A DNA stretch of 19,202 nt from a virus. Taxonomy: Duplodnaviria > Heunggongvirae > Uroviricota > Caudoviricetes. The stretch lies in the IMG/VR virus record IMGVR_UViG_2565956716_000004; one strand, given 5' to 3'. Positions 3,019 to 13,405 of this stretch are shown in pieces (position 1 is the first letter of the stretch; the number at the start of each line of letters is the position of its first letter). The notes beneath the pieces were generated by a model, which saw only the letters and a list, made by a program, of their open reading frames with translations, searched no databases and was not told the DNA's origin. The position numbers and the translations under genes are program-made.

Positions 3019-3600
3019 TTACCCTATAGGTGCTACTGGCCATTCAATATCCGGTGCAGTTGTTGTATTAACACGGTTCAGCAACACCCGATACTTCTTC
3101 CAGGCTTCCAGCAACGAGATTTCTTCCTCCGTTGCAATTTCCAGATCTGCAGCATCCTGAAGCGGCGCAATATGCTCACTGGCTACCTGCATCAGGTTGT
3201 TTTTTGTTTCTTCCGCCTCCCGGATCCGGAACAGTTTTTCTGCTTCCGTATCCTTCACCCAGGCTGTGCCGTTCCACTTCTGATATTCCCCTTCCGGCGA
3301 TAACCAGGTGACATTTTCCGGTAACGAGCCAAGTTCAGAAATAAATAACGCGTCGCCGGAAGCCACGTCATAGACGGTTTTTCCCCGATGATCTTCAACG
3401 AGATGCCACGATGCCTCATCACTGTTGAAAACAGCCACAAAGCCAGCCGGAATATCTGGCGGTGCAATATCGGTACTGTTTGCTGGCAGACCTGTATGAG
3501 GCGGAATATATGCGTCACCTTCACCAATAAATTCATTAGTTCCGGCCAGCAGATTATAAATTTTTATGGTCCGTGGTTGTTCACTCATTCTGAATGCCAT
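3019..3600 (-). CDS. tfa: Tail fibre assembly protein (lambda Tfa-like)
   Basis: 193-aa product beginning [24 protein letters not shown] and ending [12 protein letters not shown], near-identical to lambda Tfa as I recall it. Its ATG (3598-3600) overlaps the stop of the upstream stf ORF in a TAATG arrangement, as in lambda. Confidence 0.9.
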
Positions 3601-5297: not shown

Positions 5298-5562
5298 GGC
5301 GGAGAATCTCCCGGTATTCGATTACGGTTTTTTCGGTGCTGGTGTCGATCAGGGAGTTAAGACTGTTGGCATGTTCTGCAACCTGATTGAATCGATTGAA
5401 GTTGAATGCCTGGGTGGCGATTACCTGCCCCAGCATAGAGTTGTCACTTCGCAGAACGTCGTTATCGCTCTGAAGATTACTGGCGTAAGAGCAACTCTTG
5501 ACGAGAGCGACCGAAAGGCCAGCAATAACGACAACGCCTATAAGATCCGGATTAATTTTCAT
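5239..5562 (-). CDS. Rz-like i-spanin (inner-membrane spanin subunit)
   Basis: ATG at 5560-5562 overlaps the endolysin TGA (5559-5561) as ATGA. Product [21 protein letters not shown] has an N-terminal transmembrane helix then a helical region. Position immediately after the endolysin. The supplied longer ORF (to 5655) is probably an over-extension. Confidence 0.6.
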
Positions 5563-6101
5563 TGCTCCAGCCCCCAGCACGCCAGTGCGCTTTCCTGATC
5601 GCGCCGCTCGACCTGCCCATAACAGCCATTCTTCTGCCCTTTTGTCAGGCGGCAATCACGCCCACCATCTTTTATCCACCAGCGAATCGCCTCGCATGCC
5701 CCCTTACGATCATCGGCATTCAGCCGCTTATAAAACGTCGACGGGAAACACTTACCGGGGCCAATGTTATAGGGACAAAATGACGCTATACCCGCTTTCT
5801 GTGGTTCGGTCAGTGGCACTTTAATATTGCGCTCCACCCATGCCAGCGCCTTATCCCGTTCAATGGCGTTAACCTGGTCGCATTTTTCCTTCGACAGTTT
5901 CATACCGGGAAAAACGGGTTTTCCATCCACCACCGTGGCACCCCGACAGATGGTCCAGATGCCGGAACCATCGCGGTATGCCGTTGTGTGGTTACCTTCT
6001 TTTTCATTCAGAAACTGGTCGAGAATATCAGGCGCAGGCGCACCGACGGCAATCAGTGCCAGAACGGCAGCCGACAGGCCGTATCTGATTTTTACGTTCA
6101 T
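5559..6101 (-). CDS. SAR endolysin, T4-type lysozyme (GH24), RrrD/RrrQ/phage-21 R family
   Basis: 180-aa product MNVKIRYGLSAAVLALIAVGAPAP (signal-anchor-release-like N-terminus) followed by EGNHTTAYRDGSGIWTICRGAT (E-D-T catalytic arrangement of T4 lysozyme family). Closely matches my memory of E. coli prophage lysozyme RrrD. No obvious Shine-Dalgarno upstream of the ATG at 6101. Confidence 0.9.
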   Translation of the reverse strand: MNVKIRYGLSAAVLALIAVGAPAPDILDQFLNEKEGNHTTAYRDGSGIWTICRGATVVDGKPVFPGMKLSKEKCDQVNAIERDKALAWVERNIKVPLTEPQKAGIASFCPYNIGPGKCFPSTFYKRLNADDRKGACEAIRWWIKDGGRDCRLTKGQKNGCYGQVERRDQESALACWGLEQ

Positions 6102-6793: not shown

Positions 6794-7009
6794 TTACTCT
6801 CCCCGTGCAGCCTTACGCTTGTCTTCTTTAATCTTGAAATAAAGGTTTGTCAGGTACGTCAGCAGGCCAAATACCAGGCTACCCAGCACACCTATTGCTG
6901 CCCACTGTGAGGGCGTGACTTTATCGAGCAGCTGTAAAAACCAGTAGCCAGCACTGCCTGCGGAGGTGCCGTAGGCAATGCCTGTTGAAATTTTGTCCAT
7001 GGATTTCAT
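6794..7009 (-). CDS. Class II pinholin, phage 21 S / EssD-EssQ family
   Basis: 71-aa product [71 protein letters not shown], near-identical to S21-71 as I recall it, including the dual-start MKSM motif. ATG at 7007-7009. The supplied ORF extension to 7066 is rejected. Confidence 0.88.
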
Positions 7010-7110
7010 AGCCTCACCCCCGCACGGAACGGATGGCATAGTTATTATGTGTAGGCTTCCAGACACATCAATCGGAGCCTTAATTGATATATATGCTGGA
7101 GACGATGCAA

Positions 7111-7135
7111 TATAAAAAGCTCGCCGTAGCGAGCT
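7111..7135 (-). terminator. Rho-independent terminator (minus strand) between the lipoprotein moron and the holin
   Basis: Stem agctcgc (7118-7124) / gcgagct (7129-7135), loop cgta. On the minus strand the hairpin is followed by a U-run (plus-strand A-run 7114-7118). Confidence 0.45.
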
Positions 7136-7260: not shown

Positions 7261-7656
7261 CTAACCTCGCATGTCAAAGCCAGATTTCTGAAAATCTCTG
7301 TAGACTTCCGGATTGTTGAAGGCCGGAAATTTGGCTTTATGAGCTGCGGACTTTATCGCTTCGCAATAGGCTTTATCACCGTTACTGGTAGATATTTTTA
7401 ACGCCGTGCCATCCTGAGAGAATTCCATATGCAACCTGCATTTTTTCCCTTTCCAGTTATGCGGCTCATCAAGTTTGGCATTAATTGCAGCTCTGATTCC
7501 CCGCGCTTGCGCCCCCCATTCATCCTGATCATCCCAGCGTCCTGAACTGCAACTACCTGTAGCAGTAGTTTTGTGGCAATCTGAAGGGTGTAAAGGTGTG
7601 CATCCCGCAACAAAACCGACCCAAAAAGTCAACATAACGATTTTCTTTAATCCCAC
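7261..7656 (-). CDS. Lipoprotein with divergent TolA C-terminal (domain III)-like fold
   Basis: GTG at 7654-7656 with GAGGAG 6 nt upstream. Signal peptide plus lipobox (FVAGC). C-terminal region KGKKCRLHMEFSQDGTALKISTSNGDKAYCEAIKSAAHKAKFPAFNNPEVYRDFQKSGFDMRG aligns by eye, at roughly 30% identity, to TolA domain III. Confidence 0.65.
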   Translation of the reverse strand: MGLKKIVMLTFWVGFVAGCTPLHPSDCHKTTATGSCSSGRWDDQDEWGAQARGIRAAINAKLDEPHNWKGKKCRLHMEFSQDGTALKISTSNGDKAYCEAIKSAAHKAKFPAFNNPEVYRDFQKSGFDMRG

Positions 7657-7806
7657 TTCTTGCTCCTCAATCCATTAAAATCTCAGCAATAGTAGTTGTT
7701 ACGTCCGCCACTGGCTCAGAGCTGACTATCCGCTAGATTTAGCTCAGTGCCGTAGTTGTGTCAGAACAAACCTAAGCCGAAACCGTTTATTACAAAACAA
7801 TAAATA

Positions 7807-8235
7807 TCAGGGTTTAAAATCCAGCACCCCATTTTGAAATACTTTATATACTTCCGGCGAAGGGGGGGCAGGTATATCAGCATTCTTTATCGCATTCATC
7901 GCTTCACGACATAAATCGAGGTCTCCACTTTCTCTTTTAACCTCCAGTAGAAGGCCATTCGGGGCCATATGCATTCTCAGTGTACACTCTTTTCCTGAAT
8001 ACTTACTCGCATCCCCGAACTGTTTTTCGATGGCGCTCTTGATTTGATGGGCATACAGACGGATATCCTCACTAACATCAGAAGTACGTTCAGATGAACT
8101 CACATACTGTGTCTCTATTGCTTTATCGGAGTAATATGATGTACGGTCATGATAATTTGTCGATACAGCATCAGTGCACCCGATAATAATCCCACTAATA
8201 ATCAACGTAAGAATTGATGCGCTACGAAAACCCAT
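7807..8235 (-). CDS. Lipoprotein carrying a TolA domain III homologue
   Basis: ATG at 8233-8235. Signal peptide with lipobox (IIIGC). The C-terminal 85 aa (DIRLYAHQIKSAIEKQFGDASKYSGKECTLRMHMAPNGLLLEVKRESGDLDLCREAMNAIKNADIPAPPSPEVYKVFQNGVLDFKP) align nearly residue-for-residue with the E. coli TolA C-terminus as I recall it (...YAGQIKSAIESKFYDASSYAGKTCTLRIKLAPDGMLLDIKPEGGDPALCQAALAAAKLAKIPKPPSQAVYEVFKNAPLDFKP). Confidence 0.8.
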   Translation of the reverse strand: MGFRSASILTLIISGIIIGCTDAVSTNYHDRTSYYSDKAIETQYVSSSERTSDVSEDIRLYAHQIKSAIEKQFGDASKYSGKECTLRMHMAPNGLLLEVKRESGDLDLCREAMNAIKNADIPAPPSPEVYKVFQNGVLDFKP

Positions 8236-8768
8236 TTTTCCTCACATATGTCATATAGTAAAGGATTATATATACCGTTGTTTTGGACGCTCAAACAGCG
8301 AATCAGATCAAATAAAACGCACATTTGTTAACATTTACACAAAGTCTGCGTGGGATATTCTGAAAGAATATCCATAATGTGGAGAGAATCTATTGAAGTG
8401 CATGGTGCCGGGGGCCTCCCGGTGAATTCAGTACCAGCACCTGAATCCACGATTATCCCATATACCTACTCGCTGATTGCCCCTCCGCACAGGGGGATTC
8501 ACCATGCCAGTTTCTTTTAACAAACTCCCCGCAAACCAGAGAACAGTCAACCGCCTGAATTGTGAAGTATTTAAAAATTTCTCCCGCTAACTGATACCCG
8601 GCTAACAGTCTGGCGTTTTCTTTTTCAGCAACGGGAAAGCAACAACTACCACACCCGCCACCAGCACACCGTCAGCCAGCACTGACATTATCCGGCTGCT
8701 GCAATGCCATTCACAAAAACAGTAAGCAATCACTTTTTACCGTAACAGGTGATAATCCAGATATGTAT

Positions 8769-9232: not shown

Positions 9233-9309
9233 TGGCGCGCTGTACTGGATTCGAACCAGTGACCGATTGCTTAGAAGGCAATTGCTCTGTCCGGCTGAGC
9301 TAACAACGC
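9233..9309 (-). tRNA. tRNA-Arg (anticodon UCU)
   Basis: Reverse complement folds as a cloverleaf: acceptor GCGTTGT/ACAGCGC, anticodon stem ATTGC/GCAAT with loop CTTCTAA (anticodon TCT), T-loop GGTTCGAATCC, 3' CCA encoded (9233-9235). Confidence 0.85.
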
Positions 9310-9343
9310 TGAATACCGATAATGGACCGCCATCGGGGACCCG

Positions 9344-9359
9344 CCCCCCCCCCCCCCCC
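9344..9359. repeat. Homopolymeric C16 tract (G16 on the minus strand) between the two tRNA genes
   Basis: Sixteen consecutive C at 9344-9359, read directly from the sequence. Confidence 0.9.
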
Positions 9360-9420
9360 GCACCAACAACCCTGTTATCGTGTCGTCTGCTCTTCCTGAT
9401 AAGCTCATGGCGGTTTGTGA

Positions 9421-9496
9421 TGGTGGCCCTTGCTGGATTTGAACCAGCGACCTGGCGATTATGAGTCGCTCGCTCTCACCACTGAACTAAAGGACC
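9421..9496 (-). tRNA. tRNA with anticodon CAU (Met/Ile2-lysidine type, ileZ-like)
   Basis: Reverse complement: acceptor GGTCCTT/AAGGGCC, anticodon loop CTCATAA (anticodon CAT), T-loop GGTTCAAATCC, 3' CCA encoded (9421-9423). Confidence 0.85.
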
Positions 9497-9639: not shown

Positions 9640-10461
9640 TTACCTAGTTACCTTTTTTAACTGCCGCTCAGCCCATGCTTCTTCAATATCAAACCGGGTC
9701 ACCAGCGCATCATAGAATTTCTTAACTGTTTTTTCCCATGACGCGCGTGTTATCTGGTTTGTCACCTCGCATATAGCATTAAATGCCTCCGTTGATGGTA
9801 GTCTTTCATAGCCACGACCACCACAACGCTGGCAGTCTCTGATAACAGGCATACCACGTTTTACCGACTCTTCACGGTGAATGGCGACACCACGCCCACG
9901 GCAATCCTTACAGGCGGTGGAAACCTCACCCTTTCCGCCACACTCCGGACAGGCAACTTTTACCACCTCCCTGACTTTTTTCCATTCTTCCCAGTAAGAC
10001 GGATACACACCTTTCGTACACTTTGCCCATACCGGCGGCTTACCATCCGGATACTGGACCTTGTTTGTAAAAACTACGCTTTCAATAAATTTTTCCCCAT
10101 AGCAACAAGGGCACTGCTTTTTACTCGCTGCGCTGCGGGCATAATCCTCAAAAGCGTACGAAGCCATAATGCGCATCACTAACGGTTTTATTTCTGCCGG
10201 AAGTTTTCTCAACGCCGCCACACGATCGCACCGACTGAGTGCATAATCTGCCAGTAATTCTGTTGCCCGCGCCCTGTCATTCATACTGATGCCCATTTTC
10301 CCCAGGAACGCAGAAAACCCCATCTCAGCCCGATTCTGTGTCATGCCCTGCGCGGCCATCACATCAGTGATACTCAGCGCATCTTTTGACGTTGAGGCCG
10401 ATGCATCGGTCAGGCAAGGGGATTTTGGGGAGTAGTATTTCGGTAAATCTTCCAGTTTCAT
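9640..10461 (-). CDS. Late-gene antiterminator Q (phage 82/21-type, QuuQ-like)
   Basis: 273-aa product with three DnaJ-type CxxCxGxG zinc-finger motifs (CPECGGKG, CKDCRGRG, CQRCGGRG). ATG overlaps the rusA TGA as ATGA. Position upstream of PR' and the lysis genes. Confidence 0.8.
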   Translation of the reverse strand: MKLEDLPKYYSPKSPCLTDASASTSKDALSITDVMAAQGMTQNRAEMGFSAFLGKMGISMNDRARATELLADYALSRCDRVAALRKLPAEIKPLVMRIMASYAFEDYARSAASKKQCPCCYGEKFIESVVFTNKVQYPDGKPPVWAKCTKGVYPSYWEEWKKVREVVKVACPECGGKGEVSTACKDCRGRGVAIHREESVKRGMPVIRDCQRCGGRGYERLPSTEAFNAICEVTNQITRASWEKTVKKFYDALVTRFDIEEAWAERQLKKVTR

Positions 10462-12564: not shown

Positions 12565-12632
12565 AAGTGCGGGTGCATTGAGGATGCCTGACACATCAGA
12601 GGTGGCGAGGGATTTCTCCCTCGCCTGGTCTC

Positions 12633-12788
12633 TTACTCCTCAGGTTCGTAAGCTGTGAAGACAGCGACCTCCGTCTGGCCGGTTCGGAGTCGTACCTCGC
12701 AGAGGTCTTTCCTCGTTACCAGTGCCGTCACTATGACGGTTAAACAGATGACGATCAGGGCGATTAACATCGCCTTTTGCTGCTTCAT
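12633..12788 (-). CDS. hok: Hok-family type I toxin (HokD/RelF-like)
   Basis: 51-aa product MKQQKAMLIALIVICLTVIVTALVTRKDLCEVRLRTGQTEVAVFTAYEPEE, near-identical to E. coli HokD as I recall it. ATG at 12786-12788. The upstream in-frame extension to 12845 is an ORF-finder artefact or mok-like overlap. Confidence 0.88.
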   Translation of the reverse strand: MKQQKAMLIALIVICLTVIVTALVTRKDLCEVRLRTGQTEVAVFTAYEPEE

Positions 12789-13405
12789 AGCCTGCTTCTC
12801 CTTGCCTTTCGGCACGTAAGAGGCTAACCTACATGTGTCTAGCATGAAATTGGCCTCAGATTAATGTTAAGCGTCTTGCAGGACGCGTAATGTTAACTGG
12901 GGCTTTTCTCTATCTGCCTTTGGTGTTCATGCCTGAGGCAGATAGCCTCAAGCACCCGCAGCAATTCTACTTAACTCACGTCACCTCGCCAATATAAAAT
13001 CAATCAGAAAGGCGATCCGTAAGAACAACAGCAAGACAATAAATTGCCATTACAGCCGCAATAGCTAGCGCACATTTGAGAACCAGCACGACAACCTCCT
13101 GTATTGGACGTACACCAGTCCTGATAAATATGAGGCTGTCTCATCATTGATTCAATATAACTATTGGGTATAGTTTCTGTGATTTTGTTCTGTAGAAATG
13201 GAACACAACAACCAGTCACCACCAGCACTTCTTTAAATACGCCAAGTCCGACGCAAGCTAACCTTCTAGTCCGCTTTGAGCGATCTGTAGACATTGCTAG
13301 CAGCCTTCTGTGTGAATTCTCAGGGAGCAGGTCGGCATAGCATCACGTTGAGGCTCTTACCCTACTTGTTGACACCAACCCTAACTCCACAGACTGATTC
13401 ATAAA

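Follow-up and report, generated by a model that had tools for sequence, protein, structure and literature searches.

Two lipoprotein genes with a TolA domain III fold

We analysed a stretch of 19,202 nucleotides (the window; IMG/VR virus record IMGVR_UViG_2565956716_000004), a segment of an Escherichia coli chromosome in which an 18-kb defective Qin-like lambdoid prophage interrupts ydfJ. The late region of this prophage carries, on the minus strand, two small open reading frames (ORFs) that we call gene A (7807..8235; 142 amino acids, ATG start) and gene B (7261..7656; 131 amino acids, GTG start). Each encodes a lipoprotein in which a signal peptide with a lipobox cysteine is followed by a domain modelled with the fold of the C-terminal domain (domain III) of TolA, referred to below as TolA-III. 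TolA-III is the force-delivering end of the Tol–Pal system, and group A colicins and Ff/CTX-type filamentous phages alike enter through it in the periplasm. An earlier note on the same DNA, made from the letters alone, had described both ORFs with their signal peptides and lipobox cysteines and had put A at about 60% identity to the TolA C-terminus by eye. Our reading of the ORFs agrees, and alignment gives the same 60%, over 86 residues.

Gene A is preceded by the Shine–Dalgarno sequence GAGG (8243-8240). Its signal peptide, MGFRSASILTLIISGIIIGC, ends in the lipobox IIGC with Cys20 (8176-8178) as the predicted lipidated residue and threonine at position +2. A disordered linker rich in Ser, Thr and Tyr (residues 21–55, 8071-8175) leads to the TolA-III domain (residues 56–142, 7810-8070). 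Against Pfam PF06519 (TolA C-terminal; cut-off 25 bits), A scores 82.6 bits (E 2.4e-23), and phmmer matches it to TolA-III chains in the PDB with E about 1e-27. The alignment with residues 336–421 of E. coli K-12 TolA is ungapped (E 7e-31) and runs to the common C-terminus LDFKP. The domain is nearest to the TolA of E. coli itself, the other TolA representatives searched being 50–57% identical.

Gene B has the Shine–Dalgarno sequence GAGGAG (7668-7663), with the GTG start codon six bases further on. The signal peptide MGLKKIVMLTFWVGFVAGC ends in the lipobox VAGC, with Cys19 (7600-7602) and again threonine at +2. The remainder of the protein consists of a highly conserved, cysteine-containing N-terminal motif (residues 20–48, 7513-7599) and a divergent TolA-III domain (residues 49–131, 7264-7512), which scores 54.6 bits against the same Pfam family (E 1.3e-14). 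B is 34% identical to TolA over 77 residues and 29% identical to A. The motif, C-x-PLHPSxCHKTTAxGSCSSGRWDDQDEWG, is nearly invariant across genera, and its extra cysteine pair, C27/C36, is retained in members of the clade that are only 27–58% identical. A phmmer search found no counterpart of the motif among PDB sequences. We also considered GSCSSGRWDDQDEWG, within the motif, as a mimic of the TolB box of colicins; given this search result, and since the distant clade members keep the cysteine pair but not the Trp residues, the resemblance is probably due to chance.

Structure predictions with AlphaFold2 are confident for both domains. In A, the predicted local distance difference test score (pLDDT) exceeds 90 for residues 51–142 and is below 50 for residues 1–50; in B, it exceeds 90 for residues 41–131 and is below 50 for the preceding mature N-terminus of about 30 residues, so that the motif is not modelled. 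The best Foldseek match of the A model is 2x9a_B, with a template modelling (TM) score of 0.96 and a root-mean-square deviation (rmsd) of 0.6 Å, and that of the B model is 3qdp (TM 0.89, rmsd 1.1 Å); for both models, TonB C-terminal domains rank far below TolA-III structures. Both proteins also share the disulfide cysteines of E. coli TolA-III (residues about 333–421; PDB 1TOL, 1S62, 2X9A, 3QDP/3QDR): C84/C109 of A and C73/C98 of B correspond to the TolA pair Cys363/Cys388 and are invariant across the aligned homologues. The earlier note had named alignment and structural modelling as a check of the fold. With both proteins above the Pfam cut-off and the models superposing on solved TolA-III at 0.6–1.1 Å, we assign the TolA-III fold, an α/β fold of a helix, two strands, a second helix, a short helix and a C-terminal strand, to A and B with high confidence on the strength of these models.

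Neither protein is a full-length TolA: A and B match only the ends of the corresponding NCBIfam models (NF007065 / TIGR02794), at positions 293–386 of 387 and 265–362 of 362, and their NF007065 scores of 107.8 and 53.7 bits compare with a cut-off of 213. Transmembrane domain I and the helical domain II of TolA are absent, and with them any link to TolQR and the proton motive force; the lipoprotein signal stands in their place. The genes also lie in the prophage late region, outside the ybgC-tolQRA-tolB-pal-cpoB cluster as it is found in K-12. The signal peptides of A and B have a positively charged n-region, a hydrophobic h-region and a lipobox of the pattern [LVI][ASTVI][GAS]C, whose cysteine divergent homologues keep. 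All stand-alone TolA-III proteins that we examined are lipoproteins by their sequence; at +2 they carry Thr, Ser, Ala or Gly but in no case Asp. Under the rule of the Lol pathway, lipoproteins with a residue other than Asp at +2 go to the outer membrane. Since the +2 residue of A and B is Thr, both are most probably tethered at the inner face of the outer membrane, the membrane opposite to the one that anchors TolA.

Both genes are real and are under purifying selection, with pairwise ratios of nonsynonymous to synonymous substitution rates (dN/dS) of 0.06–0.35. The values for A are 0.09–0.35 in the domain and 0.3–0.6 in the linker (dS up to 0.46); those for B are 0.06–0.08 in the domain and 0.01–0.10 in the 29 mature N-terminal residues, in comparisons with dS from 0.2 to saturation. 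RefSeq presents the two genes differently. Its annotation pipeline PGAP labels 7807-8067 as ‘tolA, incomplete, missing N-terminus’, a pseudogene, and it starts B at an internal ATG (7261-7635), thereby dropping the Lys-Lys charged n-region of the signal peptide. The label on A would fit a non-functional remnant, that is, a captured fragment of tolA whose signal peptide is fortuitous, but the gene is an intact ORF of 142 codons with a Shine–Dalgarno sequence, and the selection on its domain is measured over dS values of up to 0.46. The lipobox cysteine is kept in variants of A that are 91%, 74% and 65–69% identical, although their signal peptides differ. The 5426 complete E. coli genomes that we scanned include 898 with A-type DNA, 893 of which hold at least 80% of the gene. 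This DNA is too far from chromosomal tolA to give a blastn match and so is not a recent fragment. The pseudogene reading is effectively refuted by the dN/dS values and the lipobox conservation, and we give it almost no weight. Together with the ATG start of the homologue on plasmid pO157, the same two lines of evidence indicate that the RefSeq calls for A and B look wrong; as they stand, they hide both genes from surveys of lipoproteins and of morons.

TolA-III is a familiar domain, and ‘TolA C-terminal domain-containing’ is already the RefSeq name for proteins of this kind. Work on it to date has dealt with TolA itself or with artificial dominant-negative fragments, whereas A and B represent a natural, mobile, lipid-anchored version. 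In the PHROGs database, A and B match phrog_5772, ‘unknown function’. Full-text literature searches found no functional study of proteins of the A or B type, which thus appear never to have been studied. A gene of prophage CP-933O induced by ciprofloxacin and linked to ‘TolA’ (PMC11125564) was dropped, because the supplementary table shows it to be a tail-fibre gene.

The slot between Q and the holin gene

The slot that holds A and B opens with the gene for the late-gene antiterminator Q (9640..10461, minus strand; Pfam Antiterm E 2.6e-55; RefSeq ‘antitermination protein’). There follow a terminator-like site found in a terminator scan (9559-9540), two tRNA genes identified by ARAGORN and Rfam, tRNA-Met/Ile(CAU) and then tRNA-Arg(UCU) (together 9233..9496, minus strand), a DUF3927 gene and a small RNA (sRNA) gene of the STnc100 family (8346..8536, minus strand; full-length match to Rfam RF02076 with 110 bits against a gathering score of 47). 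Next come A and B and, 125 nt past the stop codon of B, an intrinsic-terminator-like hairpin (7108..7135, minus strand) with a 7-bp stem (7135-7118, five G-C pairs) and a subsequent T-run. The downstream end of the slot is formed by the P21-type holin gene S (essD; 6794..7009, minus strand; Pfam Phage_holin_2_1 E 8.7e-36; RefSeq essD), beyond which lie a DUF1327 gene and the endolysin gene. The N-terminus of the endolysin (5559-6101, minus strand), YGLSAAVLALIAVGA, resembles a signal-anchor-release segment, and its partner is the P21 S-type holin, a member of the pinholin family.

A candidate sigma-70-like promoter for A and B is located at 8265..8294 on the minus strand (TTGAGC, 18-nt spacer, TATAAT; 10 of 12 consensus positions). 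The 3-kb region contains 10 promoter-like sites against 6.7 ± 2.5 expected, and this candidate, a consensus match, is suggestive; it is kept with one change in the –10 element in the loci of the 91%-identity variants. The signal scan detected neither a promoter nor a terminator between A and B, and the two genes are therefore probably co-transcribed. The sRNA gene, directly upstream of the promoter candidate, is possibly part of the same accessory block. The GC content is 37–47% across A and B compared with 50–54% for the Q and endolysin genes. The gene order bears out the late-operon slot named in the earlier note, and low GC content, terminator-like hairpin and promoter-like site, the last two being consensus matches, give the block the look of a moron, as the note had it. 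The contents of the slot vary: A and B are found here, and A alone, with different Q types, in other prophages.

Other cargo is known from the same position. In Stx phages, stx occupies the same slot as A and B, after Q, a terminator-like site and tRNAs; one variant of A has a nanS-p-like esterase gene directly downstream, just as stx does. Likewise, lpxR sits in the Q-to-holin slot with a PasD sRNA, and A and B have an sRNA of the STnc100/PasD family upstream. A 2026 preprint (10.64898/2026.05.13.724894) connects STnc100 with the PasD sRNAs, whose genes accompany Q and lpxR in prophages of enteropathogenic and enterohaemorrhagic E. coli. The parallels suggest a recurring layout of an sRNA plus envelope-modifying cargo in this slot. 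The cargo itself differs, however, being a toxin (stx1/stx2) or a lipid A deacylase (lpxR) there and a TolA mimic here.

The prophage around the slot is a decayed remnant. It retains an integrase gene, a frameshifted xis, replication and nin-region genes, hokD/sok, Q, the two tRNA genes, the lysis cassette, tfaQ and a tail-fibre gene that is truncated, as is the gene that follows the endolysin gene. Annotation of the window shows no head, tail or other structural genes in the prophage, which is defective and cannot make particles. The block from Q to the endolysin gene, with A and B in it, has nevertheless stayed intact. Strain KSC9 has an IS66-family insertion element between B and the holin gene, neither of which it disrupts. 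Two further features of the prophage may be recorded here. The hokD-type toxin gene is accompanied by a full-length match to the sok antisense RNA (12630-12957, minus strand; Rfam RF01794, 119.9 bits), a type I toxin–antitoxin system kept in the defective prophage, and a full-length match to the Rfam IS009 RNA (225 bits) lies within the tail-fibre assembly gene tfaQ (3059-3257, minus strand).

The position of A and B between Q and the holin gene, in the orientation of the late genes, invites an explanation in terms of lysis. Produced in bulk as part of Q-dependent late expression before the holin acts, the TolA-III domains would compete for TolB or Pal, and the selected effect would be a dominant-negative weakening of Tol–Pal; this would loosen the outer membrane, speed up or complete lysis or increase vesiculation, and on bacteriocin plasmids it would assist the release of the toxin. 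That we met A-type genes nowhere but in the Q-to-holin slot of lambdoid prophages agrees with this explanation. So does the leaky tol phenotype of TolA β3 mutants that have lost TolB binding (PMC4339652), from which it follows that interfering at this site destabilises the outer membrane. On the other hand, the pair is under purifying selection in a prophage that is unable to make particles, complete relatives already have a spanin gene (Phage_lysis) downstream, and the promoter-like site and terminator suggest expression apart from the late transcript. The distribution of B, described in the following section, adds to these difficulties.

Distribution of the A and B families

Our searches found A-type proteins in no organisms other than E. 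coli and Shigella. All A-type genes that we examined lie in the Q-to-holin slot of lambdoid prophages with differing Q and holin types, and the 91% and 66% variants have no B gene alongside, which rules out B as an obligate partner of A. B had been taken in the earlier note for a divergent tandem paralogue of A; instead, it belongs to a separate and far more widespread family, and A often occurs without it.

We identified 368 homologues of B, the listed ones being 78–89% identical and coming from Citrobacter, Enterobacter, Serratia, Klebsiella and Raoultella. When species-representative genomes were scanned, B turned up at 31 loci, which belong to about a dozen further genera; the family is present on the chromosomes of about 30 other Enterobacterales species. 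On these chromosomes of other genera, B stands by itself: nothing homologous to the Q, holin, endolysin or integrase of the window lies within 6 kb, and the idea that B is restricted to phages was discarded on account of these lone copies. The flanking genes differ between genera. In Serratia marcescens, a copy lies beside GmrSD+HEPN genes (Pfam). Read from their translations, the neighbours of other copies are a large, uncharacterised ATPase-like ORF in Klebsiella indica, which we take for a defence gene from its sequence alone, a bacteriocin exporter of the C39-peptidase ABC type in Rouxiella and Serratia grimesii, and a genuine tonB in Lelliottia. The defence and competition neighbourhoods of chromosomal B genes are anecdotal. 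A B-type gene of 88% identity is also present on pO157 (WP_001453090) and on other IncF plasmids.

In the complete E. coli genomes, B-type DNA is more frequent than A-type DNA, being present in 1269 of the 5426 (23%, about one in four) compared with 16% (about one in six) for A. Of 962 places with A-type DNA, 959 are chromosomal, whereas B-type DNA occupies 826 chromosomal and 536 plasmid places. About 780 complete genomes hold the A–B block at 99% identity or more, among them the one with the defective prophage studied here. Among 50,697 phage genomes, the sole carrier of the block is Escherichia phage mEp460_ev081 (LR597641.1, 4359-5333). Since its name suggests an evolved or recombinant derivative, this phage may have picked up the block from a defective prophage of its host.

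The wide distribution of B is the main obstacle to the lysis explanation. In about 30 species, B is a lone chromosomal gene without lysis genes in its neighbourhood, and it is found on pO157 as well. The explanation draws on the same biochemistry as the one that we favour below; it fits the confinement of A to the late operon but not the distribution of B, and we regard it as unlikely. The suggestion in the earlier note that the pair aids lysis together with the adjacent holin is thus a poor fit, both to the intact pair in a defective prophage and to the lone chromosomal genes of the B family.

The same distribution could point in another direction, namely to an envelope accessory factor with a partner of its own, in which the TolA-III fold would serve as a β-strand-addition module for some other cellular ligand such as an outer-membrane protein, Pal or a peptidoglycan enzyme; the protein would then adjust the physiology of the envelope instead of serving as a decoy. 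This would apply chiefly to B, which is broadly distributed as a single chromosomal gene, is 78–89% identical across genera with dN/dS of 0.06–0.08, and possesses an invariant N-terminal Cys motif with no counterpart in TolA and a helix-1 surface that has diverged from that of TolA. Yet the flanks of B vary between genera in the way expected of an accessory or mobile gene, unlike those of a housekeeping gene, and copies also reside on the prophage, on pO157 and on other IncF plasmids. Moreover, some neighbours of B are defence or competition genes (GmrSD+HEPN, the ATPase-like ORF and the bacteriocin exporter). We consider such a role a fair alternative, above all for B, but on the whole unlikely, to about the same degree as a role in lysis.

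A search of 1.84 billion cluster representatives with a profile built from A, B and their relatives returned 597 proteins at E ≤ 1e-3. Of the best 150 of these, 96 are no longer than 170 residues and 63 of the 96 have a recognisable lipobox, a proportion biased towards lipoproteins because the signal peptide was part of the profile. The members with a name belong to Erwinia, Klebsiella, Serratia and Dryocola. Relatives of TolA-III are encoded by 1300 plasmid records, among them hundreds of Klebsiella plasmids. ColE1-type Klebsiella plasmids of 10–12 kb carry a gene for a TolA-III lipoprotein (lipobox LTAC) followed by a gene for a secreted TonB_C protein, and both adjoin a colicin-like (cloacin/klebicin) operon of tRNase, immunity and lysis genes. 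In the K. pneumoniae plasmid NZ_CP028788.2 (4908-5641), the TolA-III lipoprotein gene overlaps the start of the gene for the TonB C-terminal domain, which has a signal peptide. A further clade, on IncF plasmids (lipobox ITAC), adjoins a gene for a thioredoxin-fold protein. A TolA-like gene on a cloacin-like plasmid has been mentioned before without functional comment (PMC10269471).

The Klebsiella plasmid proteins and the pO157 protein share the design of A and B, a lipobox followed by TolA_C, and all are encoded on mobile elements. The Klebsiella protein nevertheless forms a different clade, is 39% identical to A and has a TonB_C protein and a bacteriocin operon as its partners in place of phage late genes. 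The lysis gene in that operon can be counted in favour of a lysis helper; the bacteriocin operon and the TonB counterpart are among the reasons for the preference set out below.

Ligand surfaces and a proposed competition with TolA

Ligands approach TolA-III from two sides. Colicin A pairs with strand β2 (Leu375–Pro380) and makes cation–π contacts to Lys368, Lys379 and Lys396; the strongest contact is that between its Tyr58 and Lys368, and Tyr58 is essential to complex formation (PMC3365938). The N1 domain of the phage coat protein g3p, colicin N and TolB add a β-strand at the opposite edge, β3, where the backbone amides of Asp418 and Lys420 are indispensable, and g3p additionally touches the helix formed by residues 334–349 (PMC4339652). 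A proline at position 418 or 420 of TolA abolishes all three interactions and causes a tol phenotype (PMC4339652). For the N-terminus of TolB, parallel strand augmentation on TolA-III with a dissociation constant of 40–250 µM has been described (PMC7066135).

We mapped these surfaces onto A through the ungapped alignment with TolA. In A, Leu417-Asp418-Phe419-Lys420-Pro421 of β3 are identical, Pro416 is replaced by Val and no new proline is introduced; 11 of the 16 residues of helix 334–349 are identical. On the colicin A side, A keeps Leu375, Leu376, Lys379 and Lys396, and Lys368 is replaced by His (Tyr or Asn in variants). B keeps Phe412 and Asp418 in β3, where the other changes are conservative and no proline occurs. 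Only 4 of 14 residues of the helix are identical in B, and these belong to the core; Lys368 is replaced by Glu, Lys379 by Ser and Lys396 by His. Because its β3 and helix surfaces are kept and its domain is closest to E. coli TolA, A looks able to bind the β3-side ligands of the host TolA. With Lys368 lost in both proteins, colicin N, g3p or TolB would be likelier ligands than colicin A. B looks like a module that has taken on a new specialisation.

From the isolated TolA-III fold, the lipoprotein signal with +2 residues of the outer-membrane type, the lack of domains I and II, the purifying selection and the presence on prophages, plasmids and chromosomal islands, we infer an outer-membrane-tethered competitor of TolA that is not energised. 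A and B would be secreted and lipid-modified and would present a folded TolA-III that is unconnected to the TolQR motor. Because domains I and II are absent, such a protein would bind the ligands of TolA-III but transduce no force, and would thus compete with genuine TolA for them. The likely ligands of A, docking by β-strand addition at β3 and helix 1, would be g3p of Ff-type filamentous phages, through its N1 domain, colicin N-like toxins, through their TolA box, and TolB, through its N-terminus; nuclease colicins have an indirect dependence on TolB. Some perturbation of Tol–Pal would possibly be the price. B shares the fold and the anchor but has a helix-1 surface that has diverged, and it carries the conserved disulfide-type N-terminal motif; it would probably have a different or additional partner.

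The selected role of this competition would be the tolerance of the carrier to Tol-dependent bacteriocins and colicins and to Ff filamentous phages. We favour this role over the alternatives, tentatively and at somewhat less than an even chance, because A and B are intact in a prophage that no longer lyses productively, because B is independent of phages and because a sister clade is associated with a bacteriocin operon and a TonB counterpart. The residues conserved on the surface of A, the +2 residues of the lipoproteins and the bacteriocin-linked third clade are consistent with a decoy of this kind, which the earlier note had suggested, as is the B-family copy beside a bacteriocin exporter.

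A number of points weigh against tolerance as the selected role. Titration of TolB should cost outer-membrane integrity, which is awkward in view of carriage by 16–23% of complete E. coli genomes. Ff phages require F pili, which most strains do not have. Tolerance to colicin A by direct capture is doubtful given the loss of Lys368, and the helix-1 surface of B, with its 4 of 14 identical residues, is far from that of TolA. The promoter candidate is a consensus match only and is replaced by unrelated AT-rich sequence in the 66% variants. Neither A nor B matches any of the PADLOC defence models. Finally, the affinities of TolA-III for its ligands are weak (about 12–15 µM for g3p, 2–3 µM for colicin N and about 40 µM for TolB; PMC4339652), and a decoy would therefore need a high local abundance.

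Precedents exist for the mechanism if not for the genes. Wild-type cells with free TolA-III in the periplasm reportedly became leaky and tolerated colicins E1, E2, E3 and A (Levengood-Freyermuth, Click and Webster, J Bacteriol 1993). An isolated periplasmic TolA-III competing in a tolA+ cell is the mechanism that we propose for A and B; that construct is said to have been artificial, soluble and over-expressed, whereas A and B are natural, diverged and predicted to be lipid-tethered. Periplasmic pIII-N1 of g3p, which confers superinfection resistance, blocks the same interaction by sequestering TolA, with altered sensitivity to deoxycholate and colicin A and a 4-log fall in phage uptake (PMC10424213). 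The relationship is reciprocal: in the case of pIII-N1 the ligand titrates TolA, whereas A and B, as TolA mimics, would do the same to its ligands.

Lipoproteins of the outer membrane that block routes of entry are also known from phages, examples being Llp of T5 and Cor of phi80, N15 and mEp phages, which inactivate FhuA, and, as morons, Bor and Lom of lambda. A and B resemble these as small accessory lipoproteins of prophages, and protection of the lysogen through interference with an envelope uptake pathway that colicins use as well, as we propose for A and B, would be a further likeness. They have no relation to these proteins in sequence or fold, since Pfam and PHROGs give only TolA_C and phrog_5772. 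Llp and Cor block a receptor in the outer membrane, whereas A and B would mimic the periplasmic domain of an energy transducer.

A more general possibility, which we hold to be doubtful, is that lipid-anchored TolA-III proteins and the neighbouring secreted TonB C-terminal domains are widespread, unrecognised ‘energy-transducer decoys’ on prophages, plasmids and chromosomal islands of the Enterobacterales. By catching the translocation domain at the outer membrane, they would make their carriers broadly tolerant of bacteriocins that depend on Tol or Ton, and of filamentous phages, independently of immunity proteins, with the A and B families specialised for different sets of ligands. Should the TolA-III copies act as proposed, they would constitute a new type of resistance determinant, one that mimics the uptake machinery of the host and involves neither the loss of a receptor nor immunity to a particular toxin. 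This could help to explain the colicin tolerance of natural isolates that have no matching immunity gene. It would also bear on the design of antimicrobials based on colicins or phages and would offer the Tol–Pal field a ready set of natural dominant-negative probes.

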